From assembly GCA_023818895.1 (NCBI GenBank), contig JAMWCX010000001.1, forward strand, positions 509,789 through 541,788: 32,000 nucleotides of DNA, in the 5' to 3' direction. Of this stretch, positions 3,113-26,795 are shown piece by piece. A program made the position numbers and the translations under genes. How positions within the stretch are numbered: the stretch's first letter is position 1; the number at the start of each line of letters is the position of its first letter. The stretch is from Candidatus Omnitrophota bacterium (GTDB lineage Bacteria > Omnitrophota > Gorgyraeia > 2-01-FULL-45-10). Below the pieces are notes generated by a model. That model saw only the letters and a program-made list of their open reading frames with translations. It was not told the DNA's origin and searched no databases.

Positions 3113-3126
3113 AATACTCTCCTTTT

Positions 3127-6076: not shown

Positions 6077-7066
6077 CTAAAGCTCCCCGCCTTTAATTAA
6101 AAGCTTAAAGCCGTGATATATGAAACCGGCTATGGCGGCGACTACAACAACAAAAGATAGGATTATATTAAGCAATATCACCCTAAATGTAAAAATAACC
6201 CCCTTTTCCCTAAAAACTAACTTTATGAAATCGCTATCAAGAAATAATCCTGCCGCAAGAAACACAACGGCTATCCATAAAATATGTCTGAAGAAAAATG
6301 AAGCAATAAGAAAAAGGACTGAAAGAACGTACATTATATGAATCATCCCCTGCCTGCTAGTCGTGCCATTCGTCTCGAAAGTCATCCTCTTCAAAAATAT
6401 CTCTGTCCAAAGAAAGCACCTTCGAAAATAACTGCGAACCAGTTTCTTAATTCCAGGGAAATGGTGCTTTACCTTGATTTCTCTATCAAGATATATATTA
6501 GGTACCTTTTTCATAAGTTTTATCGTAAACTCATAGTCCTCCACATCGGCGTCTTTATATTTTACATCAAACCCTCCAAGACTTAGAAAGAGGTCTTTCC
6601 TGATGATACCAACGTACGGAGTAAAAGGCGTGGCTTTATTGGATGGTATCCTTGAATACCATACCTCTTCCTGCAGGGCTTTGAACTCGGGTATAAAACC
6701 TTTATTCGCTGGCTCACCAGAATACATCCCAATCAATACTGGCATTTTATCTTTAGAGAGGCGCTCATGAATACGTTTAAGCACATCTTCATATAATATT
6801 ACATCCGAGTCAAAAAAAATCAGGATATTGCCCGATGCTTTTTGCGCTCCGTAATTACGAGCATAGGCGGCTCCTCTATTCTTTTTAAGCGAGAAGACCT
6901 TACAATCATATCGTGAAGCAATGCCTAGGGTCCCATCGGAGGAATTATCATCAACCACAATCACTTCGAAGTTAGCAAACCTCTGCTTTTGTATAGAATC
7001 AAGAAGTCCTGCCAAGGTCTTTGCAGAATTATATGTAGGGATGACTATCGAATATTCTACACTCAT
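6077..7066 (-). CDS. Family 2 glycosyltransferase with C-terminal transmembrane helices
   Basis: YSIVIPTYNSAKTL, VVDDNSSDGT, FFDSDV (DxD). About 4 hydrophobic helices at the C-terminus. The ORF-track start (TTG at 7117) lies inside the upstream gene and directly abuts a GGAGGA with zero spacing. I prefer ATG at 7066 (MSVEYSIVIPTYN), 22 nt after the upstream stop. Confidence 0.85.
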   Translation of the reverse strand: MSVEYSIVIPTYNSAKTLAGLLDSIQKQRFANFEVIVVDDNSSDGTLGIASRYDCKVFSLKKNRGAAYARNYGAQKASGNILIFFDSDVILYEDVLKRIHERLSKDKMPVLIGMYSGEPANKGFIPEFKALQEEVWYSRIPSNKATPFTPYVGIIRKDLFLSLGGFDVKYKDADVEDYEFTIKLMKKVPNIYLDREIKVKHHFPGIKKLVRSYFRRCFLWTEIFLKRMTFETNGTTSRQGMIHIMYVLSVLFLIASFFFRHILWIAVVFLAAGLFLDSDFIKLVFREKGVIFTFRVILLNIILSFVVVVAAIAGFIYHGFKLLIKGGEL

Positions 7067-7088
7067 AGCAAATTTATTCCATATTATT

Positions 7089-7895
7089 TTATACCGATTT
7101 CTTGGCCTGAAATACAATCCTCCAACAATATTTATTTAAACCAGGAAACATTTTTAAAAAAAACGAATCAACCTTGCAAAATGATGCATCAAAAAACTTA
7201 AATAAGCCGTAGACAGGAAAGTAGACTTTGAGAAGGTATATAAAAAACCCTGTAAGATAAAAAGTCTTATACTTAATTATATTGAATGACTTTTTGAATT
7301 CATCTAAATACCCTAGACTGAAATAATGAGTAAACTCTTTCCACTCTGAAGGCGCCATATACTTTCTGTATAATTTTGCGATAGGATGCAGATCTAGCGC
7401 CTCCGAAAAAACAATCGTACCATCTTTTTTGAGAATACGCAGAGCCTCTTTTATAAAAAGACTAAAATCGCCTCCGAGGAACATAAGAACGTCCTGGCCA
7501 TATATAATATCAAATGATTCTGCGGGGAACTCAGTTCTCTCCCCATTGCGGACATACAAAGATACACGATCCTCTAATCCCTCATCTTTTATAATACTTT
7601 TGGCGAACTCAATCCTCTTGTCTGATATATCTATGCCTGTAACGATAGCGCCGTTCCTGGCAAGCCAAATAAGGTGCGCACCGGTTCCGCATCCTATATC
7701 GAGAACCTTCTTACCGATTAAAGACCCCATACATTCATGAGAATAGCGAACGCTTGAGTCCTCATACCATTTGATAGCGCTGGCCACGCGCCTCTTAGTG
7801 CTCTTTTCATCTCCTTTCTTTATGTTAAAAGGGTCGAGCACAAAATCGAAATAGCATTTCATTTTTTTATATTTTTGATTACTCAGGTTTGCCAT
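7089..7895 (-). CDS. Class I SAM-dependent methyltransferase
   Basis: Motif I VLDIGCGTGA, then acidic GIDIS and the post-I/II pattern DIIYGQDVLMFL...LKKDGTIVF. ATG at 7895 immediately follows the upstream TAA (7896-7898). Confidence 0.85.
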   Translation of the reverse strand: MANLSNQKYKKMKCYFDFVLDPFNIKKGDEKSTKRRVASAIKWYEDSSVRYSHECMGSLIGKKVLDIGCGTGAHLIWLARNGAIVTGIDISDKRIEFAKSIIKDEGLEDRVSLYVRNGERTEFPAESFDIIYGQDVLMFLGGDFSLFIKEALRILKKDGTIVFSEALDLHPIAKLYRKYMAPSEWKEFTHYFSLGYLDEFKKSFNIIKYKTFYLTGFFIYLLKVYFPVYGLFKFFDASFCKVDSFFLKMFPGLNKYCWRIVFQAKKSV

Positions 7896-8771
7896 TTATG
7901 GCTGCCTCTTTGTTCCTACGAATACCAGATAAGGGCTAAAGATGCTCGTTTCGGCTCCTTTATCCTTTAACAATACGCGGAAGATGACGTTCAAAGCCTT
8001 CTGCATGCCATTACAAAACATCAGGACGAATTTCATCAGAAAATCCTGTCGCGGGCTAAACCTATCGCCGCAATTAAAAGTGCCGTAATAGCCGCAATAA
8101 AGAACATTCCAGCGCCTTTCGTCAAATATCTTTATGAAATTCTCTTTTTTCATTATGTTAAAATTAACTTCGCTGAGCAGTTCCTTACTAAAAAGAGAAA
8201 GCCCGAGATAATTGATGCCTCGAAAATTTGGTATTATGGCAAAAAGTATGCCGCCCGGCCTTAAAAGATCCTTATGCTTTTCAACAACGTAGCCGGCGTC
8301 CGAATCCCCAAAATCCTCTATAAATCCCCTTGAGATGATAACATTAAAGTAATCTTTATACTCTTTCTGAAACCTATCAGAAAAGAAATCATCATGTATT
8401 ACATTATCTGGATTTATTCCGTATCTTTTAAACACACTTTTGTTTATCTCGACACCTCTCGCGGAGCATTCAACGCCATATGGAATACAGCCGAATGTCT
8501 TATATAAACGGACAAGGTGATAACCCGGCGCGCTGCCTATCTCAAGCACCTTGAAGCTGCCTTTAGGCATGAATTTTTTATAAATAACATTCCACAGTAT
8601 ATAATCATGATAATTCTCGAACGCATATCGCCAAGGACCAACCATAGACGCTGCCCATTGGGCAGAGCCTCGCAAAAAATCATATTCCACAAGCCTGGCG
8701 CTATACTCTCTTTGCTTGAAGCCCCAGTATTTTTCCCAGTATTTTTCTGTGCTTAGAACTTCTCTCGTCAT
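7896..8771 (-). CDS. Class I SAM-dependent methyltransferase-like protein
   Basis: VLEIGSAPGYHLV (motif I-like GxxxG), YGVECS, FNVIISRGFIEDF, LRPGGILFAIIPN. The start overlaps the upstream stop as ATGA (8768-8771). Confidence 0.7.
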   Translation of the reverse strand: MTREVLSTEKYWEKYWGFKQREYSARLVEYDFLRGSAQWAASMVGPWRYAFENYHDYILWNVIYKKFMPKGSFKVLEIGSAPGYHLVRLYKTFGCIPYGVECSARGVEINKSVFKRYGINPDNVIHDDFFSDRFQKEYKDYFNVIISRGFIEDFGDSDAGYVVEKHKDLLRPGGILFAIIPNFRGINYLGLSLFSKELLSEVNFNIMKKENFIKIFDERRWNVLYCGYYGTFNCGDRFSPRQDFLMKFVLMFCNGMQKALNVIFRVLLKDKGAETSIFSPYLVFVGTKRQP

Positions 8772-9532
8772 CCTTTAAATTTCCCAGATACTTCTTCTTT
8801 TCGCTTCAATAGATAAATTTTGAACTGGATAAGGTCAACAAGATAGCCAATGACGGTGTCAATTATACGTACCGAGCTCTTTTTGTCGCCTCTCCTTTCA
8901 AAAACGCATGGAATTTCTTTTACTTTGAGACCGCTATATAAACAGTACATCATGATCTCGGTATCCCAAAACCACCCGTCATAACGCGAGATATTTATGA
9001 GGGGCAAGACCTTGTCCCTTTTAAAAAACTTGTATCCGGATTCGGAATCCTTAAGACCCTCGTGAAGAAGGGCTCGGGATATAAACCTATAGCCGTGACT
9101 CAAAATATGCCTAAGCATAAAAAGGGGGCTCAATGTCACCTTGTAGTACCTGAATGCTGTGGCGACATCATAGCCATCGTTGACTATCGTGCTAACCATG
9201 TATGGGATGTGGCGTGGATGAACGTCAAGATCCACATCAATGTAGCCAACCACATCTCCTTCTGATATCTTTATCCCATCCCTAACCGATTTACCTCTGC
9301 CCTCATTCTTTAAGTGGACTATCTTTTTGATGCGCTTTATATCTTTATACTTGTCCTCTATCTTGTTTATTACCGAAAGCGTATCGTCAGTCCCGCAATC
9401 GTATACAAATATAATCTCATAGTTCAGCCTTGTCATATCAAGTATCTTGAATATCTCCTTTACGCTCTCTTCAAGATACTCGGCATCATTATAACAGGCG
9501 AGTATAAGGCTTAAGTCTATCTTCTCCGGCAT
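8768..9532 (-). CDS. Family 2 glycosyltransferase, DPM1/polyprenol-phosphate-sugar synthase-like (soluble type)
   Basis: LSLILACYNDAEYL, YDCGTDDT, YIDVDLDVHP (DxD), SGYKFF, WFWDTEI. These are typical of dolichyl/undecaprenyl-phosphate glycosyltransferase-like GT2 enzymes. No C-terminal TM helices seen. Confidence 0.8.
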   Translation of the reverse strand: MPEKIDLSLILACYNDAEYLEESVKEIFKILDMTRLNYEIIFVYDCGTDDTLSVINKIEDKYKDIKRIKKIVHLKNEGRGKSVRDGIKISEGDVVGYIDVDLDVHPRHIPYMVSTIVNDGYDVATAFRYYKVTLSPLFMLRHILSHGYRFISRALLHEGLKDSESGYKFFKRDKVLPLINISRYDGWFWDTEIMMYCLYSGLKVKEIPCVFERRGDKKSSVRIIDTVIGYLVDLIQFKIYLLKRKEEVSGKFKG

Positions 9533-10671
9533 ACGGCTTCCTTTCCAAAAAGACTTTTCGCGGCGCGAATCACTTTATCCGTATCGCTGTCCGACATCAA
9601 CGGATGTACCGGAAACCTAACAAGCCGCGCCGCGATATCTTCCGTCACAGGCAAGTCTTCTTTCCTGTATCCCAGATGCTTTGTCGCGAATGGCGAACTA
9701 TGAAGGGGCACATAATGGTGCGTGCACTCTACCTGGGCTTTTTTCATATCTTCTATAAAATCCTTGCGCGAGATACCCTTGTCCAGCAAAGCCCAAAATA
9801 TATGGCCGTTGCCTGTCGATCTTTTATCCGGCTGAGGTATCTTAATATATCCTTCTTTCGCTATATCCTCGAAGGCGTCCGCATATCTTGAACATATAAC
9901 GCGACGACGTTCTGTTATAAAATCGATCTTTTTAAGTTGTCCCAGGAGTACGGCGGCAAGAACATCCGATATCACGAAACTCGAACCAACATCTATCCAT
10001 GTATACTTATCGATCTTGCCTTCGAGAAAAAGGAACCGGTTTGTCCCCTTTTCCCTTCCTATCTGCACAGCTTCACATAGAGATCTTTTATTTACAACCA
10101 GCGCCCCGCCCTCACCACATGTTATGTTCTTCGTGCTGTGGAAACTCAAACAGCCAAGATCCCCGAAGGTGCCAAGCGGCCTACCGTTGAACATAGCTCC
10201 TATCGCTTGTGCGGCATCTTCAATGACATGTATATTCTTACGCGAGGCCTCCCTTATCAAACGCTCCATGTCGCACGACAGTCCTCCATAATGTACTGGT
10301 ATAATAGCGCGAGTCTTCTTTGTAACGCGTCTCATAGCATCGTCGATATCGATATTAAGCGTGCGATCTTCTATCTCACAGAAGACAGGACGGGCGCCCT
10401 GCCTTAAAATAGCGTTGGCCGTAGAGACAAACGTAAAGCTTGGACATATAACCTCATCGCCCCGCCCTATCTCGAGAGCCATCAAAGAGAGCTCGAGCGC
10501 GTGAGTGCCGGAGGTCACAAGATACGCAAAAGCTCCTCCCAAGACCCGGCTCAAAACAGCCTCCGCCTCTTTGCAAATAACACCTTCGCCCTGTATTTTT
10601 TTATTCGCGATAGCTGCGGCTGCCGCTGCCTCTTCTTCTTTGCCGATAAATGGGACCGAATAATGTATCAT
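9517..10671 (-). CDS. PLP-dependent sugar aminotransferase, DegT/DnrJ/EryC1 family, WecE-type (dTDP-4-keto-6-deoxyhexose transaminase-like)
   Basis: Matches E. coli WecE as I recall it over long stretches: GDEVICPSFTFVSTANA, IIPVHYGG, VIEDAAQA, SFHSTKNITCGEGGALV (PLP lysine), REKGTNRFLFLEGKIDKYTWIDVGSSFVISD. The start overlaps the upstream stop as ATGA (10668-10671). Confidence 0.9.
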   Translation of the reverse strand: MIHYSVPFIGKEEEAAAAAAIANKKIQGEGVICKEAEAVLSRVLGGAFAYLVTSGTHALELSLMALEIGRGDEVICPSFTFVSTANAILRQGARPVFCEIEDRTLNIDIDDAMRRVTKKTRAIIPVHYGGLSCDMERLIREASRKNIHVIEDAAQAIGAMFNGRPLGTFGDLGCLSFHSTKNITCGEGGALVVNKRSLCEAVQIGREKGTNRFLFLEGKIDKYTWIDVGSSFVISDVLAAVLLGQLKKIDFITERRRVICSRYADAFEDIAKEGYIKIPQPDKRSTGNGHIFWALLDKGISRKDFIEDMKKAQVECTHHYVPLHSSPFATKHLGYRKEDLPVTEDIAARLVRFPVHPLMSDSDTDKVIRAAKSLFGKEAVCRRR

Positions 10672-12089
10672 GATTTGGTTTTGTCCTTTTTAAACATGCA
10701 ATAAAACGCGAAAAATGCGCCGTTTAACGCCAGTTTTAACTGTTGTAGGGATCTAATTCTTCTGGCATGCGTAAGTATCTTGGACGGTCTCAGGTAAAAT
10801 TCCCTGAAAGCCCTCTTCTGCCAGTAAATCATCCTATCCGGCTCAAGCGCCGGCAATCTGTGCACTGGTTCTGTATAGACGCCGTAATTGTCATAGTCAG
10901 TATTAAAGATAAGATTGTCGCGCAAAAGCTCCGCGTAGACATCGCTACCCGGATATGGCTTTAGTATAAGAAACTTGGCAAAATCCGGATCCAGTTCTTT
11001 CGTAAAAGTTATGGTGTCTTTGATTGTCTCCTCTGTCTCGCCGGGCAACCCAAAAATAAGAAATGCCCATGTCTCGAAACCGAGCTCTTTTGAAAGTTTG
11101 AAAGCCTTTCGGGTGACGTCAAGCGGGATGTTCTTTTTTATCCTTTTCAGTATAGCGTCGTTTCCGGATTCAACGCCGTAGCCGACCGTCTTTATTCCTA
11201 TATTCTTAAGAGCAACTAATATCTCGCGGTCGACACAATCGGCCCGCAGGCCATTCATGAATTGAAAATGCACGCCAAGATCGCGCTTTTTTACCTCATC
11301 GCAAAATTCGAGAGCGCGTTTTTTATTAAGAGTGAATATGTCATCCGCTATATGTATCTCCCTTATGCCATGCCCATTTACCAGTCCTTCTATCTCGGCG
11401 ATTATGTTCGCGACACTTCTCATACGAAACGTCTTTGAAAATATATGCTTAGTACAGCAGAAGGTACAGCTTCCCGGGCATCCTCTGGAAGTGATTATAG
11501 TCATCGCCGGTAGTCTTTCAGCGTCCGGAGGCATATACGCATCCGGTCTTTTCAGAAGGCTCCTATCCGGAAAAGGTATGGAATCGAGATCATCGATAAA
11601 AGGCCTTCTTTCTGTGGCAACCGACTTGCCGTCTTTCTTGAAATAGATACCTTTGACGCTATGGAGGCTGGGCTTTTCTTTACTAAGTTCTTCGCATAAT
11701 TGCCTTATCGTCTCTTCTCCTTCGCCAACAACCACGATATCTATATTTTCTTCGCATATCGCCTCCTGGGGCGCTATGGTAGCATGAATGCCCCCCAGAA
11801 TAACGGGAACTTCTTTTTTTAACGATTTGGAAATCTTGGCCCATCTGAGGGCATCCTTGAATGTTGGGGTAACGCTGGATATTCCCACAGTATCAGGATC
11901 AAATTCCGTGAAGAGTGTTTTAAATTTCTGCTCATCGAGCCCCTCCGTATCGATATCAGCGAAACGAACCCTGTGCCCGTCTTTTTCCAGGACTGTGCCT
12001 ATGTAAAGAACGCCGAGCGGCGGATAGGCAGGCGCCATCTTTCTACCGTAGACTTTTTCCTGAGATGGATTAATGAGAAGTATCTTCAT
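10668..12089 (-). CDS. Cobalamin (B12)-binding-domain radical SAM enzyme (class B), paralog A
   Basis: MKILLINP..., VGISSVTP, ILGGIHAT, VVVGEGE (B12-binding domain pattern), IPFPDR, TSRGCPGSCTFC (CxxxCxxC at 11457-11480), GVESGN, FGLPGET, YPGS. The track ORF extends to 12227 but those 46 codons lie inside the upstream gene. ATG at 12089 forms an ATGA overlap with the upstream stop. Confidence 0.9.
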   Translation of the reverse strand: MKILLINPSQEKVYGRKMAPAYPPLGVLYIGTVLEKDGHRVRFADIDTEGLDEQKFKTLFTEFDPDTVGISSVTPTFKDALRWAKISKSLKKEVPVILGGIHATIAPQEAICEENIDIVVVGEGEETIRQLCEELSKEKPSLHSVKGIYFKKDGKSVATERRPFIDDLDSIPFPDRSLLKRPDAYMPPDAERLPAMTIITSRGCPGSCTFCCTKHIFSKTFRMRSVANIIAEIEGLVNGHGIREIHIADDIFTLNKKRALEFCDEVKKRDLGVHFQFMNGLRADCVDREILVALKNIGIKTVGYGVESGNDAILKRIKKNIPLDVTRKAFKLSKELGFETWAFLIFGLPGETEETIKDTITFTKELDPDFAKFLILKPYPGSDVYAELLRDNLIFNTDYDNYGVYTEPVHRLPALEPDRMIYWQKRAFREFYLRPSKILTHARRIRSLQQLKLALNGAFFAFYCMFKKDKTKS

Positions 12090-13339
12090 GATTCTAAAAT
12101 AACTTCGGGTGCTTTTTTGCGTTTGTATTTTGCTTCGAGATCGTCCCTTATCTGAACTATCTGCTCTGAAGTCAGGCCAGACGTCGAGACAAGCGAACGG
12201 TATTCCCCTGGCCTTCCTTTGAACCAAGCATGTTCGTAATCATCCTTAAAATCAATGTCAAAACTTTCTTTATCCTTATAAATCAGAGAACCGGGATAAG
12301 GCGTATAGATAGTAACATCTATGTCATCGAGATCCGCCTCTTCAAGAAAAGCCGTTGTCTCATTAATGGACTGTCTATTCTCGCCCGGCAACCCTATTAT
12401 GAAGAAGCCTTTGACGCGTATCCCAAAATCATGGCACAATTTTATCGCGTCCATGTTCTTTTTTACGGACTCTCCCTTATTAACTATATCGAGTATGCGC
12501 TGGGAGCCGGACTCTATACCCACTCCGACCTCCACACAGCCAGAATCACGCATAGCCGAGATCACTTCCCTGTCCACGGTATCGGATCTTATGAAACACC
12601 TGTATATGATATCGAGTTTTTTAAGAAGCGAGCATATCCCAAGCATCCTCTTTTTATTCACAGTTATCGTATCATCAAAAAACATGAATGCCTTGTAGCC
12701 GTATCTTTTTTTGAGGTCGCTTATCTCATCATAAACGTTCTGTGGGCTGCGCATTCTAAGGGTCTTACCCCAGGCATTGTTCGCGCAGAATTTACAGCCG
12801 AAAGGACAGCCGCGCGAAGTGATAAGCGTAGTGGTCAGCTCGTCATCAAGATAATATTTGTAACTTTTTATATCTATGAGCTCGCGGTCAGGAAATGGGA
12901 TCGCATCGATATCCTTCAGGTATTCGTATCTTAAAATTCTGGCCGTTGACATACCGGCTTCTTTTGCGCGCACGATATCCAGAAACGCCTTCTCTCCCTC
13001 TCCTACAACAACGATATCCGATGGATCGTGGACATCTTCAGGTCTGCCTGATACGTGAGGGCCACCGAATACGTATAAAGCGTTAGCTGTATTATTACGC
13101 TTTTTGAGTTCTGCCGCCACTCTGTCCGCGGTGGGAAATTGCGGTGTATTTGAATAGATGCCTACTATGTCGGCGTCGATTCTTTCCGGCAGAGGCCTTT
13201 CATCATTCATATCTATTAGAGATATATCCTTATAACCGTTATTCTTTAGGTAAGCGCTTAAATAAAGAAGCCCCAACGAAGGAAAGACTTTCTCGCTTAT
13301 CAAAAACTGGGAATTTGGATTTACCAGGAGTATCTTCAT
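12086..13339 (-). CDS. Cobalamin (B12)-binding-domain radical SAM enzyme (class B), paralog B
   Basis: MKILLVNP..., VGIYSNTP, FGGPHVS, VVVGEGE, IPFPDR, TSRGCPFGCKFC, GIESGS, IGLPGEN, YPGS. Clear paralog of the genes on both sides. Confidence 0.9.
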   Translation of the reverse strand: MKILLVNPNSQFLISEKVFPSLGLLYLSAYLKNNGYKDISLIDMNDERPLPERIDADIVGIYSNTPQFPTADRVAAELKKRNNTANALYVFGGPHVSGRPEDVHDPSDIVVVGEGEKAFLDIVRAKEAGMSTARILRYEYLKDIDAIPFPDRELIDIKSYKYYLDDELTTTLITSRGCPFGCKFCANNAWGKTLRMRSPQNVYDEISDLKKRYGYKAFMFFDDTITVNKKRMLGICSLLKKLDIIYRCFIRSDTVDREVISAMRDSGCVEVGVGIESGSQRILDIVNKGESVKKNMDAIKLCHDFGIRVKGFFIIGLPGENRQSINETTAFLEEADLDDIDVTIYTPYPGSLIYKDKESFDIDFKDDYEHAWFKGRPGEYRSLVSTSGLTSEQIVQIRDDLEAKYKRKKAPEVILES

Positions 13340-13349
13340 AACCCAACCA

Positions 13350-14798
13350 CTAAGTTTCCATTTTAAAATAAACTGAATTCGCTACCAGCGAAAGGGCCTT
13401 CTTCGAATTGCCCATAGCGATATTAAAAGCTATCTTTGCGGCGACGGAAGGATTCGTTATGCCAAAATAAAGCATGTCAAATAAAAATACAGGGTTGAAT
13501 AGGTAGTTTTTTACTATATTCAGATTTGTGAATTTGCGCACATACCTCTCAAGTTCCTTTATATCAATTTCCGAAAAAGGAACGGGAGTAGCATCCTGAT
13601 GCCAGTAACGCTCTTCAGAATCCAGAACCCCCTTATTCTTTGCTTCCTCGTAGAGATCGGTACCGGGGAAAGGGGTGGTGAAATAAGCCGCATAAAAATC
13701 GGGACGAATACGCCTAAGAAGTTTTTTGGTCATCTCCAGGTCATCCACGTCTTCGCCAGGATTTCCGACCATTATAGTCGCGACCGTACGCAGACCATAC
13801 TTTCTGCATGCCTCAAATGCTCTGATCGTATCTTCGACTTTAATACCCTTCTTGAGACGGTCCAGAACTTTCTGCGAACCGGATTCGACGCCGAAATCGA
13901 CTTGTATACAGTTTGAGTTCTTTAAGAGCTTGGCATATTCATCGTCGAAGAGGTTGACTCGTGCCTGACAATTCCAAAACATTCTCGGATATTCTTTCTT
14001 TATTCTTTTGCAGAATTCAGCGACAAAATTCCTGTTGACGGTAAAGGTATCATCCATAAGCACAAGGGTTTCTATTCTATAATTCGTCACAAGAAGCGCT
14101 ATCTCGCTAAATATATGATCCATACTTCTGTAACGAACCCTTTTACCGAACATCTTATGAGCCGAGCAGAATGTACACGTAGAAGGGCATCCTCGCGAAG
14201 TCATTATCCATCCGCTTCGCGACCATCTGCCACGTATCTCGCCCCTTCTTGAGGTAAAACGTCTTCGGTCCACAAGGTGGTAAGCGGGTAAGGGCAGCTT
14301 GCTAAGATCCTCTACCGGTCCTCTCGGGCTTGTCTTTATAATCGCGCTTCCCTCTCTGTAATATACACCTAATACCGACTCAGGACTCATATTACCGCGA
14401 ATAACATCAAGAAGCTCAAGTATAGTTTCTTCCCCTTCGTATATAACCACAAAATCGGCTCCCCAACTCATAACCTCTTCAGGCATAAACGACGCATGAA
14501 CTCCACCTACTATTATCCTGCCCCGAAGGGACGACTCCCTAATCTTGCGTATCATACTTCTTACCTCGAAACGCTGGGCGGCCATGCAGGTAATTCCGAT
14601 GATGTCAGGGTCTTCATTGTGTAGATATTCGATTGTGGCATCTATTTGCTTTCCGTAATCTGCCGTCTGTGGCGCCTGAAGCTCTCTGACCTTAACCAAG
14701 CATCCTGCCGCTTCAAGAACACTTGCTATCTGCAACAGCCCGAAAGGAGGACATACAAGCTGCACGGGATTGATAAGAACGCATTTCATACCCATCAT
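13350..14798 (-). CDS. Cobalamin (B12)-binding-domain radical SAM enzyme (class B), paralog C
   Basis: MKCVLINP..., IGITCMAAQ, VGGVHAS, VIYEGEE, TSRGCPSTCTFC, GVESGS, VGNPGE, FPGT. The start is moved from 14837 to ATG at 14798, which gives an ATGA overlap with the GT4 stop (14795-14797) and has GAGGA about 9 nt upstream. Codons 14799-14837 lie inside the upstream gene. Confidence 0.9.
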   Translation of the reverse strand: MMGMKCVLINPVQLVCPPFGLLQIASVLEAAGCLVKVRELQAPQTADYGKQIDATIEYLHNEDPDIIGITCMAAQRFEVRSMIRKIRESSLRGRIIVGGVHASFMPEEVMSWGADFVVIYEGEETILELLDVIRGNMSPESVLGVYYREGSAIIKTSPRGPVEDLSKLPLPAYHLVDRRRFTSRRGEIRGRWSRSGWIMTSRGCPSTCTFCSAHKMFGKRVRYRSMDHIFSEIALLVTNYRIETLVLMDDTFTVNRNFVAEFCKRIKKEYPRMFWNCQARVNLFDDEYAKLLKNSNCIQVDFGVESGSQKVLDRLKKGIKVEDTIRAFEACRKYGLRTVATIMVGNPGEDVDDLEMTKKLLRRIRPDFYAAYFTTPFPGTDLYEEAKNKGVLDSEERYWHQDATPVPFSEIDIKELERYVRKFTNLNIVKNYLFNPVFLFDMLYFGITNPSVAAKIAFNIAMGNSKKALSLVANSVYFKMET

Positions 14799-15985
14799 GA
14801 CACCATCCTCGCAGATATCCCTTTTGCAGCAAGACACTCGTTATACAGCCTCTTGATATCCGAGACCAGTCTTTCTTTTGAGTAGATGTTTGACACAGAA
14901 ACCCTGCCACAAATTCCCATATTCCGACACAAGATCTTATCTTCCATCAGGGAGATAAGTCTTTCGGCAAAGGCAGCAAAATCACCCGACTTAACCAAAA
15001 ATCCGTTCTCCCCATCTCTAATAAGGTCCTCCACTCCGCCGACCGCGGTAGCTACTACAGGCTTGGCAGAGGCCATGGCCTCTATGATAGATACCGGCGT
15101 CCCTTCGTTGAGGGAGGTTAGTCCAACGACGTCGAGACTCTCATAGACCGAAGCCAGCTCGTCTACCCAGCCGGTAAAGATAATGTCTTGCTGGATCCCT
15201 ATCTGGGCAGCATATTCTTTGATAGAGAACTCCGACTCGCCATTACCTACCACTATAAATTTAACATTCGCATCAGGCCTCTTTTGCCGAAAATATTTAG
15301 CCGCGTCCAAAAACATCTTATGGTTCTTTATGGGAACAAGCCTTCCGACTATTCCGACAAGAAACGTTTCATCAGAGAAGCCAAGATGCTTCCTAAAAGA
15401 GCCTTTAGCGATTTCGCAATTAAGAAACCTGTCTAGTTCAAAACCAAGCGGTATAACGGCGGTTTTTGAACTTTTCACTACCCCAAGGTTCGCCACTATA
15501 TCGCCCTTGATCCTGTCGCTTACCGTAATAACCTTATCCGTAAAAAGCCCCAAGAACCTCTCGATCATAAGAAAGAGGCGCGCTTTTAATGGGCTAAAGT
15601 AGCCGTCAAATATATGTCCGTGGAAAGTATGAACCTTCACTGGAACTCTGGCTAATATAGCAGCAATTCGACCCAGCGTGCCAGCCTTTGCGGTATGGGT
15701 ATGGACAATGTCCGGCTTCTCTTTTTTTATTATCGAATAAAGTCCTATCAGCGCTTTCATATCTTTCGCAGGAGATATATCCCTTATAAGATCCTCCACG
15801 ACTATAGGATAAACTCCTTTTTCTCTAGCCAGATAAGACATGTCGCCTTCTGAGACACTTATTCTGCCGCAAACCAACACATCCTTATACGAGCCGTTCT
15901 TGTTAAGCTCGCTGGAAAGAAGCACCGTATGTATCGCCGGCCCGCCGATATTAAGCCTTGTTATTATCCTTAGGACTTTAACCAT
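14795..15985 (-). CDS. GT-B fold glycosyltransferase, family 4 (group 1)
   Basis: N-terminal RLNIGGPAIH, and C-terminal EGTPVSIIEAMASAKPVVATAVGGVEDLIRDGENGFLV containing the EX7E motif typical of GT4 retaining transferases. AAAGG lies 6-7 nt upstream of the ATG at 15985. Confidence 0.9.
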   Translation of the reverse strand: MVKVLRIITRLNIGGPAIHTVLLSSELNKNGSYKDVLVCGRISVSEGDMSYLAREKGVYPIVVEDLIRDISPAKDMKALIGLYSIIKKEKPDIVHTHTAKAGTLGRIAAILARVPVKVHTFHGHIFDGYFSPLKARLFLMIERFLGLFTDKVITVSDRIKGDIVANLGVVKSSKTAVIPLGFELDRFLNCEIAKGSFRKHLGFSDETFLVGIVGRLVPIKNHKMFLDAAKYFRQKRPDANVKFIVVGNGESEFSIKEYAAQIGIQQDIIFTGWVDELASVYESLDVVGLTSLNEGTPVSIIEAMASAKPVVATAVGGVEDLIRDGENGFLVKSGDFAAFAERLISLMEDKILCRNMGICGRVSVSNIYSKERLVSDIKRLYNECLAAKGISARMVS

Positions 15986-15986
15986 A

Positions 15987-16274
15987 TTAAACCTTTATGC
16001 TCAAAAATTTATAAATAAGGGATGATCTCCAATAGCTAGATAGTGATGATAAGGATACGCAGCTTAATATTCTCTTCCACCCGCTATATATCTCAATAAA
16101 TATTTTTCTACTATCAGACAACAAATATGCAGATTTAACCACACACGTCACATTCGATAAAACATAGCTCATGTATGCAAAAAAACAACTCTTAAAAAAG
16201 GATTTAACAAATAGTCTAACTAACCGATACAGCCAGCTTTCTCTTAACGTGTCTTCATTTAATAAAATGTTCAT
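15987..16274 (-). CDS. Hypothetical small protein (95 aa), no recognisable family
   Basis: The ORF exactly fills the space between two genes. Its ATG overlaps the upstream stop as ATGA (16271-16274) and its stop lies 1 nt before the GT4 start. It has one hydrophobic stretch (FFKSCFFAYMSYVLSNVTCVV). The S/L/K/F-rich, low-complexity composition and low G+C make coding status uncertain. Confidence 0.3.
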   Translation of the reverse strand: MNILLNEDTLRESWLYRLVRLFVKSFFKSCFFAYMSYVLSNVTCVVKSAYLLSDSRKIFIEIYSGWKRILSCVSLSSLSSYWRSSLIYKFLSIKV

Positions 16275-16768
16275 TTTTGTAATATTTTTATTATTGCCGC
16301 ATTTGCCGTAACATTATCCGTATAAAGAGCCACCACATTACCGATTTTTAAAGGGGCGCTTGAGGCAGCCAGATATGTTTCTCCCTTTCTCTTATACGCT
16401 ATCAGGCTCATCAGAATCGTAACTTCTCTAATATCTTGCTGATAAAATATCTTTTCGCCGTCTTTTGAGACATAAGTAATTGCCGGCACAGGCTCTACGC
16501 TTATCACTTTCTCTATAATACCTACTGGCGTTTTTTCGATATCTAATATCTTATCCCCTTCCCGAACAAGACCTGCCGTATATTCAGGCAACTGCGCCAC
16601 GCCGATACAACGTACGTTGAAAGTTTCAAGCTGGACCCAGGAAGGGTCTTTGGACAACCTCACCCATTGGATAGCAAGAATGGCAGCGCATGCCAGCGTC
16701 GTAATTACGAAAAGATCGAAAATATTCACCTTACCAAATAATCTCCCTTCCTTGTCTATTATTACCAT
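16271..16768 (-). CDS. DUF4330-like protein with N-terminal membrane anchor
   Basis: N-terminus MVIIDKEGRLFGKVNIFDLFVITTLACAAILAI matches my memory of the DUF4330 N-terminal signature (IDxKGRLFGKxNIxDL followed by a TM helix). Length is about 165 aa. An alternative upstream ATG at 16792 would add 8 residues. Confidence 0.5.
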   Translation of the reverse strand: MVIIDKEGRLFGKVNIFDLFVITTLACAAILAIQWVRLSKDPSWVQLETFNVRCIGVAQLPEYTAGLVREGDKILDIEKTPVGIIEKVISVEPVPAITYVSKDGEKIFYQQDIREVTILMSLIAYKRKGETYLAASSAPLKIGNVVALYTDNVTANAAIIKILQK

Positions 16769-16793
16769 ATCCTCACCCTTATCTGTTATCATT

Positions 16794-18641
16794 TTATAAA
16801 AAATACTTAAATTTGTAATAGACTATTGCCGCGTACTCATGGAGTATGCCTTTTATTTGCTCAAGCTTAACAGTATGACCCTTTGAATAGTAGGCGCTCT
16901 GTTCAACAGGAACAAAATAAAACTTCACATCTGATAGGTATCTATCGCAAAGCAATTTGACCCTCAGCATGTGGTAAGGAGAGCTTACCAGAATAATGCT
17001 TTTCCACCCACTCGACCGTGCCATAGCGGCCAGGCTTTTTATCATGTCGTAAGTATTAGAAGGTGAGTCATCCACCATGACATCTCTCTCGCTGACGCCG
17101 ATCGACACCGAAAGCGCCTTCATAACATGAGCCTCTCTCATTATATATTTGTAGCCGCTTATATAAATAATGCGCCCAGCCAGACCTTCCTTGTATAGCT
17201 TTACCGCGGTATATACCCTCTCCTCGTATCCCTGGCCCGCTTTGCCAGATTCACCTGTTCCAGCCCCGAGAACTACTATCGCATCGGATATCTCCGGCTC
17301 GCTTTTGACCGCAAGAGGGCTGGCTACCCACCATATAAGCGGTGTATGGAAAAGAGCGAAATACAGATATGCAATTGCAACACACGCGATGGCAAATCGC
17401 TTTCCGGTACGCCTGTAGATATTGGCCAGATTGGACCGCCACGATACTTCCTTGATCCTCCTCTTCTCTTCAAGAATTGATTCGATAAGAGATGACATTT
17501 CCTCCAGCTTTGAAGCCCACGAATTCTTCTTAGCAGCCTCAATAGCGCGGGCCGTTTCATTTGGATCGCGCGGGGAGCTAAGCGCGGTTTTCAACTCGTC
17601 GCAAAACCCCTGCGCGCTAGATGATACGCTCACGATATTACCATTTTCCCTGTTAAACTTCACTACCTCAGGTAGATTCGTAGAAACAACCCTCTTCCCT
17701 ACCGACAAATACTCGTTAAGCTTAGTGGGATACACGTTCCTCGTATACTCAGTGATCCTGTACGGTATGAGCGCAACATCGAATTCCTTGACATACATCG
17801 GCAATTCTTCGGTGGGCTTATATCCGAGAAAAGTTATATTGGGATGTTTTTTTAGTTTTTCCACATCCGTCTGTATCGGACCACAGAATACAAAAGATAC
17901 GTCGCTCAGGGCGTCAGCAACCATCTCGACGAGTTCTAGATCTATCCATTTATGTATACCTCCTATGTATCCGGCGATCGGCCTTTTTATATTGACCATG
18001 TCTGCCGGAACAGGGACCATTTGGTTGAAGGCTTTCTGGAAGTTCTCTATGCTTACGCCAAACGGAAAGTAGTGGACCCTGTCGTTATATTGCCTACAAT
18101 ATCGCGCCAGTTCATCGCTTGTCACGAATACGATATCGGACCTTTTGATCAGGCGTTCTTCGCTTTTCCTTATCTTCTCCGCACCCTTAGAGCTCGCCTT
18201 GAAGGAATCTATGCAATAGTATATAAGCGCCTTGGGCTCGATCTTTTCTATTATATCGAGACTGAGAGCTGTCGGCAGGAAGGTCCAGACTATCGGCTCG
18301 GAGAATCCGACCGATTTGAGCCACCTGAACAGGACCGACGAGATAAGCTTCTTGTTAATAAACCTGGCTATCCTCAAGTATGGGAACGGCAGAACGATCG
18401 GTGAGTAAACGTAAAGACCGTCTTCTATTTTTCGGATGCCGCGCACTCCCTTTCTCCAATTAGCTATTCGCTTTCGTATCCTTCCGAAATCGCTAACCCT
18501 GGGAGCTCGAACACCGGTATTCTCTATAAAAAGTACCCTGTTACCATTCCTGGCAAGGCGCGTCATTATTTCTTGATGGCCTTGCCAGATAAAGTCCCAG
18601 TCTATGCTTGAGATGCATATAATATCTTCGTTTTTGAGCAC
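16794..18641 (-). CDS. Fusion protein: N-terminal GT-B glycosyltransferase (TuaH-like GT4), one TM segment, C-terminal DUF218 (YdcF/SanA/ElyC-like) domain
   Basis: The N-terminus IICISSIDWDFIWQGHQEIMTRLARNGNRVLFIE is typical of TuaH-like GT-B enzymes. A hydrophobic segment spans residues about 415-441 (FAIACVAIAYLYFALFHTPLIWWVA). The C-terminus DAIVVLGAGTG...RIIYISG...EAHVM...PSNTYDM...ILVSSPYHMLRV follows the DUF218 consensus. The start is GTG at 18641, with GGGGG 4 nt upstream. Confidence 0.8.
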   Translation of the reverse strand: MLKNEDIICISSIDWDFIWQGHQEIMTRLARNGNRVLFIENTGVRAPRVSDFGRIRKRIANWRKGVRGIRKIEDGLYVYSPIVLPFPYLRIARFINKKLISSVLFRWLKSVGFSEPIVWTFLPTALSLDIIEKIEPKALIYYCIDSFKASSKGAEKIRKSEERLIKRSDIVFVTSDELARYCRQYNDRVHYFPFGVSIENFQKAFNQMVPVPADMVNIKRPIAGYIGGIHKWIDLELVEMVADALSDVSFVFCGPIQTDVEKLKKHPNITFLGYKPTEELPMYVKEFDVALIPYRITEYTRNVYPTKLNEYLSVGKRVVSTNLPEVVKFNRENGNIVSVSSSAQGFCDELKTALSSPRDPNETARAIEAAKKNSWASKLEEMSSLIESILEEKRRIKEVSWRSNLANIYRRTGKRFAIACVAIAYLYFALFHTPLIWWVASPLAVKSEPEISDAIVVLGAGTGESGKAGQGYEERVYTAVKLYKEGLAGRIIYISGYKYIMREAHVMKALSVSIGVSERDVMVDDSPSNTYDMIKSLAAMARSSGWKSIILVSSPYHMLRVKLLCDRYLSDVKFYFVPVEQSAYYSKGHTVKLEQIKGILHEYAAIVYYKFKYFL

Positions 18642-18723: not shown

Positions 18724-19617
18724 TTATCGCTTTAACAGAGCGGCTTTGAATCCAGCAAGATTCCCTAATGCCCTGTAGATATAACGTTTATCAAAACCGA
18801 ACAAACCTTTTAGTATATTATTCAGCAATAAGCCAAAAAGAGCCCAAAGGCATAATGCCGGTGACAAAGGCGGATTCTTCCTCACAAAATAAAGTCTGTT
18901 TAACACTTCCATCTTACCGAGCGGAGCGCTGAAAGATATTTCTTCTAGCGAGTTCATGTGCCTTACCTTCGCGTCTGCAACAAGGTATATCCGATACTTT
19001 CGCCCCACACGATAACCGAAATCTACCTCTTCATAACGGGCATAGCCACTAAACCATTCATCAAACATGAACTCATTGAATATCGAGGATCTCCAAGTCA
19101 TAGCGCATCCGACAACCCATTCGACCTGTGATGTCTCATCAATCGGCGGTATCCTGCTCTGAAAACCCGACTTCAGGATCCTGCCAGGTTTATCCGCATT
19201 GACCATGAAAATCTTCTGCAATACCGTAGGACGTCCTTCTGAGACATTAGTGATATTGAATCCAGCTCCGCCCACATCGGGCGCCGCCCCTTCCCAGAAC
19301 TTCATCATATTCTTAAGACATCCATCATCAAGAATGACATCATCATCGAAAAAAGCGATAATGGACACATCTTTAAATATGCGCCTGATGCCGACATTTC
19401 GCTGGACGGTCAGCGATGCCGGCAATTGTCTCATATACTCGATTTTCATGCCAGGAAAATCCCTTACTAGCCGTTCTACCGGCAAGACACCTCCGTCAAC
19501 AACGATAATCCGCGCCGGTTTATAGTCCTGGTCCTTAATGGAAGCAAGTATATTTGCCAGTCCTTCCACCCTATCTTTGGTAGGAATAATTATTCCGAGA
19601 CTAGTCCCTGAGCTCAT
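18724..19617 (-). CDS. Family 2 glycosyltransferase
   Basis: LGIIIPTKDRVEGL, RIIVVDGG, FFDDDV (DxD), and a C-terminal amphipathic/hydrophobic tail. This is typical non-processive GT2 architecture. Confidence 0.85.
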   Translation of the reverse strand: MSSGTSLGIIIPTKDRVEGLANILASIKDQDYKPARIIVVDGGVLPVERLVRDFPGMKIEYMRQLPASLTVQRNVGIRRIFKDVSIIAFFDDDVILDDGCLKNMMKFWEGAAPDVGGAGFNITNVSEGRPTVLQKIFMVNADKPGRILKSGFQSRIPPIDETSQVEWVVGCAMTWRSSIFNEFMFDEWFSGYARYEEVDFGYRVGRKYRIYLVADAKVRHMNSLEEISFSAPLGKMEVLNRLYFVRKNPPLSPALCLWALFGLLLNNILKGLFGFDKRYIYRALGNLAGFKAALLKR

Positions 19618-24126: not shown

Positions 24127-24150
24127 TTTTCTCTCATTAAATTCTTATAT

Positions 24151-24906: not shown

Positions 24907-24923
24907 ATCGCCTCGTCGTAATT

Positions 24924-25787: not shown

Positions 25788-25789
25788 AC

Positions 25790-26752: not shown

Positions 26753-26795
26753 ATATAATGAGCCTTTCGGTTTAGATAACATTACAAAAACGAGT

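Follow-up and report, generated by a model that had tools for sequence, protein, structure and literature searches.

Class-B-type radical SAM paralogs in an Omnitrophota surface-sugar operon: candidate modular tailoring enzymes

Introduction

In an uncultivated Omnitrophota bacterium, three consecutive genes of an operon for surface sugars encode radical SAM enzymes with B12-binding domains. What do these enzymes act on, and do they act together? A preliminary description of the locus proposed that all three work successively on one amino-deoxy sugar. Our analysis of the surrounding 32-kb stretch of DNA (the window) and of related loci supports this interpretation in part: a role in glycan tailoring is very likely, but the three enzymes are probably independent modules rather than a trio.

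Operon organization

ORF and Pfam annotation of the window defines a 27-gene array, all on the minus strand (as are all features below), which extends from an ABC ATPase to a WecA gene and an O-antigen-ligase-family gene. None of the 26 junctions exceeds 82 nt, and 4-nt overlaps account for seven of them; tight coupling is a property of the whole operon and is not special to the trio. A backbone block consists of a GT2 (18724–19617), a GT1+DUF218 (16794–18641) and a DUF4330 gene (16271–16792), assigned by Pfam, followed by an ORF of 95 aa (15987–16274) and a GT4 glycosyltransferase (14795–15985; PF13439 and PF00534) that ends the conserved block. Variable radical SAM cassettes come next, here rSAM-A (13350–14798), rSAM-B (12086–13339) and rSAM-C (10668–12089), followed by a DegT/WecE-type sugar 4-aminotransferase (9517–10671; PF01041, 322 bits; NF008687, 420.9 bits versus a cut-off of 375). 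The trio was thus correctly placed between a GT4 and a WecE-type aminotransferase.

The next gene encodes a GT2 of 254 aa (GT2_254; 8768–9532), a candidate polyprenyl-phosphate glycosyltransferase of the DPMS/GtrB/ArnC type, whose top PDB match is the Pyrococcus Dol-P-Man synthase (5mlz; E 8.6e-15, residues 5–230), followed by GtrB and ArnC. Beyond it are two class I SAM methyltransferases (7896–8771 and 7089–7895; Pfam methyltransferase domains), a GT2 of 346 aa (6077–7117; PF00535) with two C-terminal TM helices in its Kyte-Doolittle profile, and an ArnT-like GT-C of the PMT_2 family (4304–6073; PF13231, 45.4 bits versus 26.1) with about 12 TM helices (twelve TM-like segments). Pfam and NCBIfam assign the remaining genes as a GDSL/SGNH esterase (3127–4317), an extended SDR 4-keto-sugar-forming dehydratase/epimerase (2144–3130), a WecA-like initiating phosphotransferase (1098–2135) and a partial Wzy_C O-antigen-ligase-family gene (2–1066).

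The window contains radical SAM genes beyond the trio: Pfam identifies five class B paralogs, the trio included, along with two SPASM genes (28235–29167 and 19622–20725). The two class B genes that had been missed are rSAM-D (22600–24126; PF02310 and PF04055), with a C-terminal TM helix (residues 462–490), and rSAM-E (29184–30689). rSAM-D overlaps a PMT_2 GT-C gene (20729–22603) by 4 nt and lies downstream of a GtrB/ArnC-like GT2 (GT2_360, 25790–26872; E 2.5e-71 against GtrB, full length), a YdjC deacetylase (24924–25787) with HpnK as its top NCBIfam match (148 bits), and a methyltransferase (24151–24906; Pfam). The region 20729–26872 holds a second module, with GT2, YdjC, methyltransferase, rSAM-D and PMT_2 GT-C in a row. 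With a NanM-like gene (30731–31693), the class I methyltransferase genes placed in the operon number four. No flippase was identified within the window, nor are lipid-synthesis or hopanoid genes present in it.

Sequence features of rSAM-A, rSAM-B and rSAM-C

All three proteins (482, 417 and 473 aa, respectively) are full-length and share the architecture expected of class-B-type paralogs: a B12-binding domain (PF02310; 83.6, 54.1 and 83.3 bits, gathering cut-off 32.1), a radical SAM domain (PF04055; 96, 107.3 and 86.7 bits, gathering cut-off 29.5) and an intact CxxxCxxC motif. Most of the motifs listed previously were recovered. MK(I/C)(L/V)L(I/V)NP, GG(V/P/I)H, TSRGCPxxCxFC, G(V/I)ESG and G(N/L)PGE are common to the three, and IPFPDR is confined to rSAM-B and rSAM-C, as had been noted; V(V/I)xGEGE, however, is replaced by VVIYEGEE in rSAM-A.

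The cysteine triad is retained on alignment. In rSAM-A, the cluster reads CPSTCTFC (residues 204–211), and 14 orthologues show no variation at C204, C208 and C211 or at four further cysteines, C71, C277, C297 and C331. Likewise, C178, C182 and C185 do not vary across 23 orthologues of rSAM-B, nor do C204, C208 and C211 across those of rSAM-C, where C212 is nearly invariant. The SAM motifs, like the domains and the triad, are intact and invariant inside each orthogroup. The same holds for the N-terminal GGxH and GEGE-type motifs, which argues for a functional cofactor domain. None of the three has a TM helix in Kyte-Doolittle profiles, and the C-terminal tail of rSAM-C is basic and aromatic.

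The unbroken chain of ATGA overlaps described from GT4 to aminotransferase holds at 12086–12089 (B/C) and 10668–10671 (C/DegT), but rSAM-A and rSAM-B are separated by a 10-nt spacer with no overlap. The start of rSAM-A is ambiguous (ATGATGGGTATGAAA) and may lie one or three codons downstream; the NCBI product has 479 aa, and orthologues start with MxxKC. The GT4/A overlap is therefore either ATGA or TGATG, depending on the start chosen.

Pairwise identity among the three is 27–34%, and sequence clustering assigns them to three different clusters, each a separate orthogroup. We read them as anciently diverged class-B-type radical SAM enzymes that probably form no obligate trio.

Family placement and structural comparison

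The three proteins score below the cut-off of every characterised NCBIfam family (BchE, HpnJ, MgmA, PhpK, AprD4 and others); against the BchE, HpnJ, HpnR, MgmA, PhpK, BzaD, TsrM and HemN-type models they fall 2- to 6-fold short. The premise that they belong to no family with an established non-glycan role thus stands. The top NCBIfam scores of the trio are to BchE and HpnJ, both non-methylases, and ApyD is also among the best matches.

AF2 models of rSAM-B (pLDDT 89.2) and rSAM-C (pLDDT 92.6) were compared to solved structures by Foldseek. The closest for both is AprD4 (6fd2), the radical SAM 1,2-diol dehydratase of apramycin biosynthesis, with E 2e-23, TM 0.80/0.74 and rmsd 3.6 for rSAM-B, and E 9e-28 and TM 0.75/0.78 for rSAM-C, for which TsrM, MgmA, CysS and TokK follow. 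The rSAM-B profile (E 3e-34) and rSAM-C as a single sequence likewise match AprD4 best at the sequence level. MgmA (9ccb), a glutamine C-methyltransferase (QCMT) of MCR, is the best profile-to-sequence match for rSAM-A and rSAM-C, part of the cobalamin domain included, and is similarly compact; however, its substrate is a protein, and TIGR04014 scores are 125–149 bits versus a cut-off of 360. Through the N-terminal domain, the profiles of rSAM-C and rSAM-A align with genuine cobalamin enzymes, namely MgmA (from positions 84 and 92, respectively), OxsB (from 32 and 46), CysS and TokK; that of rSAM-A alone also aligns with TsrM, from position 2.

AprD4 acts on an amino sugar (PMC5461906) and does not need cobalamin (PMC5461906, PMC12931638). 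Since AprD4 and ArsL belong to the same similarity network and yet bind no cobalamin (PMC12931638), cobalamin binding is not readable from the sequence. One or more of the three enzymes, rSAM-B being the likeliest, could employ cobalamin-independent, AprD4-like chemistry: hydrogen-atom abstraction at a vicinal diol or amino alcohol of a sugar, followed by 1,2-dehydration that yields a keto-deoxy sugar, or by a related epimerization, oxidation or HpnJ-like ring contraction. An SDR would then reduce the ketone, or the neighboring DegT protein would transaminate it, an anaerobic route to deoxy-amino sugars. The fold and sequence matches to an enzyme of similar size (about 450 aa, two domains) and with an amino-sugar substrate speak for this alternative, as do the top NCBIfam scores being to non-methylases, the 4-nt C/DegT overlap and the presence of an SDR in the operon. 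Moreover, the CPR and DPANN hosts of rSAM-C orthologues generally do not produce cobalamin. We nevertheless consider it rather unlikely. Identity to AprD4 is only about 22%, and scores to its family model (NF033070) are 102–107 bits versus a cut-off of 500, about one fifth. Alignment of the rSAM-A and rSAM-C profiles with AprD4 is limited to the radical SAM core, and the AprD4 N-terminal domain has no sequence-level alignment, whereas cobalamin-binding domains do align; the invariant N-terminal motifs point in the same direction. The high TM score also derives partly from equal length and the lack of extra domains, and AprD4 serves a secondary-metabolite pathway, not cell-surface glycan assembly.

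Distribution and modularity

The rSAM-A orthogroup is narrow and mostly from Omnitrophota, while that of rSAM-C is widespread, with at least 120 clusters at ≥46% identity in Omnitrophota, CPR bacteria, Woesearchaeota and others. The full A-B-C set occurs in only one close relative (L088, ∼70–80% identical), where the complete GT4-A-B-C-DegT block, whose conservation the preliminary description had proposed to check, is kept. Elsewhere, A and B occur without C (L094), A alone (L089, L090) or B alone (L091, L092, L093), and C lacks both A and B in 24 of its 25 orthologue loci. The backbone order GT2, GT1/DUF218, DUF4330, small ORF and GT4 is the same in L088 and L091; L089 and L094 keep GT1/DUF218, DUF4330 and GT4 but not the GT2 upstream, and gene calling placed no small ORF between their DUF4330 and GT4 genes. 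What follows the backbone GT4 in these relatives is A-B-C, A, B or A-B, and a PMT_2 gene stands directly after A-B (L094) or B (L091).

That the three enzymes act successively on one and the same amino-deoxy sugar, with iterative C-methylation as an example, is not supported because of their low identity, their different clusters and their independent occurrence. Their contiguity and coupling, the complete block in L088 and the joint presence of A and B in L094 would fit such a unit, and iterative class B methylases do exist (TokK and CysS, by their PDB entry titles); but the coupling is operon-wide, and iteration in the known cases is the work of a single enzyme, not of three paralogs. We regard a single functional unit as improbable.

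Conserved glycan context

As expected, these radical SAM genes are linked to glycan genes beyond the window as well; the linkage shows strong conservation across Omnitrophota, CPR bacteria and DPANN archaea. Glycan-type genes are present in 62 of 86 non-redundant loci, with neighbors annotated using the window proteins as probes, a search of limited sensitivity. An Omnitrophota locus (L002) has four B12-radical SAM genes interspersed with GT2 and methyltransferase genes, and a Woesearchaeota locus (L006) has three, plus two other radical SAM genes, beside STT3/AglB, a GT2, a WecA-like gene and a flippase. Compared to the local background, immediate neighbors of B12-radical SAM genes are enriched in GT2 (odds ratio 2.2, p 4e-5), methyltransferases (3.0, p 1.6e-4) and GT-C (3.7, p 0.0065); DegT shows no enrichment in this position. 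Of the 25 rSAM-C orthologues, 18 have a GT2 within 4 kb (directly adjacent in 8), and only 5 have a DegT gene in that range. rSAM-C thus co-travels with a DPMS/GtrB-like glycosyltransferase, and with a DegT aminotransferase or membrane GT-C in a minority of loci.

That the operon is merely shared and the substrates are lipids (a lipid A acyl chain, the polyprenol carrier or membrane lipids), proteins or peptides is very unlikely: many class B enzymes do modify lipids, such as HpnP, HpnR and the GDGT enzymes (PMC13459092), or RiPPs (compare the ApyD match), and for seven rSAM-C orthologues (L004, L022, L025, L026, L027, L028, L068) the probe search within 4 kb found neither a glycosyltransferase nor an aminotransferase, epimerase or WecA-type gene (L025 has a PMT_2 GT-C in this range), but gaps of −4, −4 and 10 nt leave no space for a precursor-peptide gene, the window lacks genes for lipid synthesis, and the link to GT2, GT-C and methyltransferase genes is kept in different phyla and domains. 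Even at the apparently non-glycan locus L004 (Desulfovibrionaceae), a gene for a 681-aa protein with at least 7 TM helices starts 5 nt after the rSAM-C orthologue.

Functional implications

Our best overall explanation, a tentative one, is that rSAM-A, rSAM-B and rSAM-C are modular tailoring enzymes for surface-glycan sugars, encoded in an LPS/O-antigen-like operon. The window would join two separable modules. The first would comprise rSAM-A and rSAM-B, with Omnitrophota-restricted orthogroups, located after the conserved GT4 and, in relatives, directly before a PMT_2 GT-C. The second would comprise rSAM-C with the DPMS/GtrB-like glycosyltransferase, in an Arn-like layout. The SDR may generate an NDP-4-keto sugar that DegT aminates, and the small GT2 would charge polyprenyl phosphate with the product. 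At the cytoplasmic face, where SAM and low-potential reductant are available, the radical SAM enzyme would use hydrogen-atom abstraction to alter an unactivated carbon of the carrier-linked sugar. The leading candidate for this chemistry, although short of an even chance, is methylcobalamin-dependent C-methylation to branched sugars, with AprD4-like dehydration as the alternative; GenD1, GenK and MoeK5 are precedents as cobalamin radical SAM sugar C-methylases (PMC8992657). Class I methyltransferases would supply N- or O-methyl groups, and once the donor has been flipped, the GT-C would attach the tailored sugar to the glycan on the periplasmic side. The presence of class I methyltransferase genes in the operon, the lack of an identified flippase, AprD4 as the best fold, the absence of DegT enrichment and the fact that sequence does not reveal cobalamin binding were counted against this explanation.

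Three-component systems offer a precedent for modifying a sugar on polyprenyl phosphate ahead of GT-C transfer (PMC11127046), and a polyprenyl-phosphate-linked substrate is conceivable here, though somewhat short of probable. As the three enzymes lack TM helices, a soluble nucleotide sugar is just as plausible a substrate. Arn and related systems of three-component periplasmic glycosylation (ArnB-ArnC-ArnD-ArnT; GtrA/B/V; polyprenyl-phosphoribose systems) resemble the locus in the DegT-family aminotransferase, the small charging GT2, lipid-linked sugar tailoring and the PMT_2/ArnT-like GT-C; they differ from it in the flippase component, which was not found in the window. We know of no member of these systems that includes a radical SAM enzyme. 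The related loci point to interchangeable radical SAM modules for sugar tailoring, perhaps on carrier-linked sugars, which to our knowledge are new for cell-surface glycans.

By description, the gentamicin enzymes GenK and GenD1 and the moenomycin enzyme MoeK5 are similar class B enzymes that methylate unactivated sugar carbons (PMC8992657); however, they belong to actinomycete antibiotic pathways, with no known tie to polyprenyl-phosphate glycosyltransferase and GT-C systems. In the HpnI-HpnK-HpnJ system of the hopanoid cyclitol-ether side chain, a lipid-linked amino sugar is processed by a GT2, a YdjC-type deacetylase and a class B radical SAM enzyme. The substrate of MoeK5 is likewise lipid-linked, a lipid-phosphoglycerate-linked saccharide. 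HpnJ chemistry is known from genetics only (PMC13459092). Scores here are well below the cut-offs (150–199 versus 577.6 for HpnJ; 148 versus 232.6 for HpnK), and the window module ends in a GT-C, with hopanoid genes absent. The row of GtrB-like GT2, HpnK-like YdjC, methyltransferase and rSAM-D nevertheless parallels the Hpn system, and HpnJ is among the top NCBIfam matches for all five paralogs.

Organization of the gene cluster

The window, which derives from a Candidatus Omnitrophica/Omnitrophota MAG, is a single co-directional array of at least 27 genes on the minus strand. The C-terminal end of an ABC ATPase precedes the array, which closes with a WecA-like phosphotransferase and a gene of the Wzy_C (O-antigen ligase) family. 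The array also carries four GT2s, two PMT_2 GT-C enzymes, as well as GT4 and GT1 enzymes, four methyltransferases that could be placed, an HpnK-like YdjC deacetylase, an SGNH esterase and an extended SDR.

The three class-B-type radical SAM genes reported at 10668–14798 in the preliminary description are confirmed by their ORFs and Pfam gathering scores. They comprise A (13350–14798), B (12086–13339) and C (10668–12089), all on the minus strand. Proteins A, B and C score 83.6, 54.1 and 83.3 bits against the B12-binding domain (PF02310; gathering threshold 32.1), and 96, 107 and 87 bits against the radical SAM domain (PF04055; threshold 29.5). The proposed flanking genes are also correct: Pfam places a GT4 upstream of A, and the aminotransferase DegT (9517–10671) that follows C passes the WecE-type model NF008687 over its full length (420.9 bits; cut-off 375), with 357 bits against TIGR02379, under the cut-off of 434.85. 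The radical SAM count was incomplete, as the window encodes two further class-B-type enzymes, D (22600–24126, minus strand) and E (29184–30689, minus strand), and two radical SAM/SPASM genes (19622–20725 and 28235–29167, both minus strand).

The three genes were described as chained by ATGA overlaps. Such overlaps join B to C and C to DegT, while A and B are 10 nt apart, and the junction between the GT4 and A is either ATGA or TGATG, depending on the choice among three adjacent ATG starts. Tight coupling is not a hallmark of the trio, since none of the 26 junctions of the array exceeds 82 nt and seven of them are 4-nt overlaps.

Two ORFs on the minus strand have no Pfam match. The first, of 95 residues (15987–16274), lies between the DUF4330 and GT4 genes, and an ORF is kept at this position in two of the related loci, L088 (93 aa) and L091 (136 aa). 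The second, of 470 residues (26796–28208), has a weak match to TIGR04326, which models a surface carbohydrate biosynthesis protein of the Leptospira type. With the coordinates given, the ORF shares 77 nt with the downstream GT2 (25790–26872), whose start is thus probably misplaced.

Family assignment

The CxxxCxxC cysteine triad is retained in all five class-B-type proteins and is invariant within the A, B and C orthogroups, as are the GGxH, (G)EGE-type and GxESG motifs within each of them. The sequence motifs listed earlier are present, except that A has VVIYEGEE in place of V(V/I)xGEGE. Pairwise identities among the five proteins are 24–34% (27–34% among A, B and C; 24–32% between these and D or E), indicating that they are old paralogs rather than recent duplicates. 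A recent tandem duplication of A, B and C was rejected on the basis of these identities and of their membership in different clusters.

None of the five proteins reaches the cut-off of any curated NCBIfam class B model. The best matches are to BchE, HpnJ and ApyD, with 150–231 bits for A–D and 85–112 bits for E (cut-offs 481–750). Proteins A, B and C score 173.2, 152.7 and 231.4 bits against BchE (TIGR02026; cut-off 481), 149.6, 169.7 and 199.3 bits against HpnJ (TIGR03471; cut-off 577.6), 101.9, 107.3 and 106.5 bits against AprD4 (NF033070; cut-off 500), and 125–149 bits against the MgmA model (cut-off 360). With scores so far under the cut-offs, none is placed in BchE, in a HemN/tetrapyrrole family or in another characterized class B family. 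The neighborhood of A–C consists wholly of glycan genes, with no tetrapyrrole context of the kind expected for BchE, and no shc or hpn genes were found in the window by Pfam annotation. The JGI labels "anaerobic Mg-protoporphyrin cyclase" (BchE) and "YgiQ" were rejected as best-hit artefacts. A role as RiPP maturases was also rejected, given the gaps of −4, −4 and 10 nt and the lack of a small ORF beside the trio. A–C are new, uncharacterized orthogroups of a known superfamily.

Additional conserved cysteines are seen in these families. In the C family a fourth cysteine, within CTFCC, is nearly invariant. The orthologue alignment of the A family contains four invariant cysteines besides the triad (C71, C277, C297 and C331), which may belong to an auxiliary metal site. 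C268 of B is invariant, and its position is equivalent to that of C297 in A.

Structural similarity and reaction chemistry

AlphaFold2 models of B (pLDDT 89.2) and C (pLDDT 92.6), both of which have an N-terminal β-α domain, were searched against the PDB. The closest solved fold for both is AprD4, despite their scores being under the NF033070 cut-off. The C model aligns with AprD4 with TM-scores of 0.75/0.78, followed by TsrM, MgmA, CysS, TokK and OxsB; the B model aligns with TM-scores of 0.80/0.74 (rmsd 3.6 Å), followed by MgmA and TsrM, then MiaB and CysS, TokK and OxsB. In profile comparisons, MgmA, OxsB, CysS and TokK match the N-terminal domains of A and C through their cobalamin domains, and TsrM does so for A alone, while AprD4 aligns to both profiles over the radical SAM core only. 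The best sequence match of B is the AprD4 core.

Class B enzymes bind cobalamin in a base-off form without a conserved sequence ligand, and AprD4 and ArsL contain the same type of domain yet bind no cobalamin (PMC12931638). Since base-off binding leaves no conserved ligand to look for in the sequence, A–C are only putatively cobalamin-dependent.

Among class B reactions, C-methylation is the most frequent, and the methylases GenK, GenD1, MoeK5, Fom3, TokK and CysS transfer the methyl group to an unactivated carbon, forming one SAH and one 5'-dA per turnover. Sugar C-methylation has precedents in GenK, GenD1 and MoeK5 (PMC8992657). We tentatively favor this chemistry for A–C, at slightly less than even confidence; TokK and CysS are distant matches (E-values of 1e-13 to 1e-18). 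The main rival, possible but less likely, is an AprD4-like dehydration or some other non-methylating radical reaction. The substrate of AprD4, a radical SAM diol dehydratase that works without cobalamin, is the amino sugar paromamine (PMC5461906; PMC12931638), and the keto product of an equivalent reaction could feed the adjacent DegT aminotransferase. The closeness of the B and C folds to AprD4 is consistent with this alternative, and the N-terminal alignments of A and C to cobalamin domains are consistent with C-methylation.

Genomic context in other organisms

The comparison covered 80 GTDB-genome loci, 57 metagenome loci and 13 loci obtained via exact look-up, with neighboring genes annotated using the window proteins as probes. 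The C orthogroup is the largest, with at least 120 clusters at 46% identity or more, and its hosts include Omnitrophota, Aminicenantes, Patescibacteria, Planctomycetia and Woesearchaeota, among others. The B orthogroup has ∼70 clusters (57–73% identity), the named ones being mostly from Omnitrophota, and the A orthogroup is small (∼14 clusters at 47% identity or more), also mostly from Omnitrophota.

The GT4 lies behind a GT1/DUF218–DUF4330 backbone in the window and in L088, L089, L091 and L094; in L090 a flippase is upstream of the GT4 instead. The genes that follow the GT4 vary. The window and L088, a 70–80% identical relative, share the order A-B-C-DegT-GT2-MT-MT-GT2-PMT_2. L094 has A-B-PMT_2; L089 has A-GT2-rSAM-SDR-GT2-B12rSAM-PMT_2; L090 has A, a 12-TM PMT_2-like gene, then GT2-GT2-PMT; and L091 has B-PMT_2-MT-MT-UbiA-GT2-SDR-WecA-Wzy_C-GT9. 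The arrangement of a GT4, three radical SAM genes and a WecE-type aminotransferase is thus not generally conserved: among the 80 GTDB and 57 metagenome loci, the complete block occurs in only one close relative, L088 (the same contig as L095). A and B are absent from 24 of the 25 C-orthologue loci. Across all 25, a GT2 is found within 4 kb in 18 and directly adjacent in 8, and a DegT within 4 kb in 5. A and B follow the backbone GT4 and, in relatives, are followed by a GT-C. We interpret the trio as two modules brought together, A-B and C-DegT-GT2. These distributions argue against the proposal that A, B and C act successively on one sugar, which we regard as improbable, even with the intact order shared by the window and L088.

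The neighbors of B12-rSAM genes (those encoding B12-binding/radical SAM enzymes) were tested for enrichment by comparing immediate neighbors with the local background of the same loci, a conservative control. GT2s (odds ratio 2.2, p = 4e-5), methyltransferases (odds ratio 3.0, p = 1.6e-4) and GT-Cs (odds ratio 3.7, p = 0.0065) are enriched. DegT shows no enrichment in this local-background test, and was rejected as a general partner of B12-rSAM genes; the association holds for a subset of C orthologues only. In Woesearchaeota, the locus of the C orthologue includes two more B12-rSAM genes and another two radical SAM genes, next to STT3/AglB, a GT2, a flippase and a WecA-like gene.

The sole apparently non-glycan context is that of a Desulfovibrionaceae MAG (L004), with no recognizable glycosyltransferase near the C orthologue. 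The next gene, 5 nt away, encodes an unannotated 681-aa protein (11418–13463) containing at least 7 TM helices, and a class I/II aminotransferase gene comes after it. We consider a non-sugar substrate for A–C very unlikely.

Predicted polyprenyl-phosphate and GT-C routes

In the three-component paradigm, a sugar is placed on polyprenyl phosphate, tailored, flipped and transferred by a GT-C (PMC11127046). Two GT2s of the window resemble enzymes of this kind. The GT2 that adjoins DegT (8768–9532, minus strand) is closest to Pyrococcus Dol-P-Man synthase (DPMS; PDB 5mlz), GtrB and ArnC. The second (25790–26872, minus strand) is a GtrB/ArnC homologue that matches GtrB over its full length (E = 2.5e-71) and has two C-terminal TM helices. 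Judged from these similarities, the window contains a GT2 predicted to charge polyprenyl phosphate, as in Arn-like systems. The GT-C is also present, as two PF13231 PMT_2 proteins (45.4 and 35.2 bits; gathering threshold 26.1) with 9–12 TM segments; a PDB sequence search with a PMT_2 protein gave no match. No flippase of the GtrA, ArnE/F or MATE-type families was found in the window by Pfam, and a partial ABC ATPase is located at its right edge. DUF2304 and Polysacc_synt genes occur in related loci.

Based on the GtrB/ArnC/DPMS-like GT2s and the two PMT_2 GT-Cs, the window appears to hold two Arn-like or "three-component" routes, each with an embedded class B radical SAM gene. The upstream route (20729–26872, minus strand) has the order GtrB/ArnC-like GT2, HpnK-like YdjC deacetylase, methyltransferase, D and PMT_2 GT-C. 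A C-terminal TM helix is predicted in D (residues 462–490), whose gene overlaps that of the GT-C by 4 nt. The layout of this module resembles HpnI/HpnK/HpnJ and the logic of Arn. An HpnJ-type ring contraction by D is thought less likely, as a phospho-linked carbocycle would be no glycosyl donor for the downstream GT-C. The downstream route has the order C, DegT, GT2 (8768–9532), two methyltransferases, GT2, GT-C, esterase and SDR. The C-terminal tail of C is basic and aromatic.

Possible role in surface glycan biosynthesis

The dependence of radical SAM enzymes on SAM and a cytoplasmic reductant confines their action to the stage that precedes flipping of the sugar. Substrates available at this stage would be NDP-sugars, polyprenyl-phosphate sugars or polyprenyl-diphosphate oligosaccharides. 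We infer that a carrier-linked monosaccharide is favored, because of the repeated adjacency to polyprenyl-phosphate glycosyltransferases and GT-Cs, the membrane anchor of D and the basic, aromatic tail of C, and the precedent of HpnI/K/J, in which a class B enzyme acts on lipid-linked glucosamine (PMC13459092).

These observations lead to a broader proposal that we advance only speculatively. Class-B-type radical SAM enzymes might be a fourth component of polyprenyl-phosphate-sugar/GT-C systems, acting before the flip on the lipid-linked monosaccharide by radical C-methylation, deoxygenation or rearrangement, and yielding combinatorial, carbon-modified surface sugars without counterpart in the O-antigen, capsule or N-glycan pathways characterized so far. 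If so, uncultivated anaerobes among the Omnitrophota, CPR bacteria and DPANN archaea, the last including their N-glycans, would possess a large repertoire of such sugars. A limited literature search found no characterized cell-surface glycan pathway using a cobalamin-type radical SAM enzyme and no description of recurrent class B embedding in polyprenyl-phosphate-sugar/GT-C surface-glycan pathways; searches for radical SAM with O-antigen, polysaccharide biosynthesis or AglB/N-glycans, with limited access, gave nothing relevant.

The linkage to polyprenyl-phosphate glycosyltransferases and GT-Cs spans bacteria and archaea. If carrier-linked sugars are modified, the surface coats of Omnitrophota, CPR and DPANN would contain new sugar chemistry. 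Members of these lineages are mostly regarded as episymbionts or predators, so their surface chemistry likely matters for host contact. For enzymology, the loci would supply a defined group of class B radical SAM enzymes whose substrate class can be predicted, and the DegT/GT2/C set is small enough for reconstitution in E. coli.

Variation of the radical SAM cassettes

Enzymes of this type are many and highly diversified across the compared loci, with 226 B12-rSAM ORFs forming 97 clusters at 42% identity or more, and five are found within the one operon of the window. L088 contains an extra B12-rSAM gene (4647–6032; 461 aa, E-like), located between a GT2 (GT2_297) and GT1/DUF218, that is absent from the window; this is presence/absence variation of radical SAM cassettes between close relatives. 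A 790-aa Omnitrophota protein (P0225) has a class I methyltransferase domain fused to a B12-binding/radical SAM enzyme, which fits the enrichment of methyltransferase genes beside B12-rSAM genes. Radical SAM/SPASM-like genes are again found close to B12-rSAM genes in L006, L092 and Nitrospinota loci. In L092 (6460–21230), a primase-helicase of DnaG/DnaB type and a PDDEXK nuclease are directly followed by a B orthologue (61% identity), a radical SAM/SPASM gene and a series of GT1, GT2 and DegT genes. This region may be a mobile element or phage with a glycan-modifying cassette.
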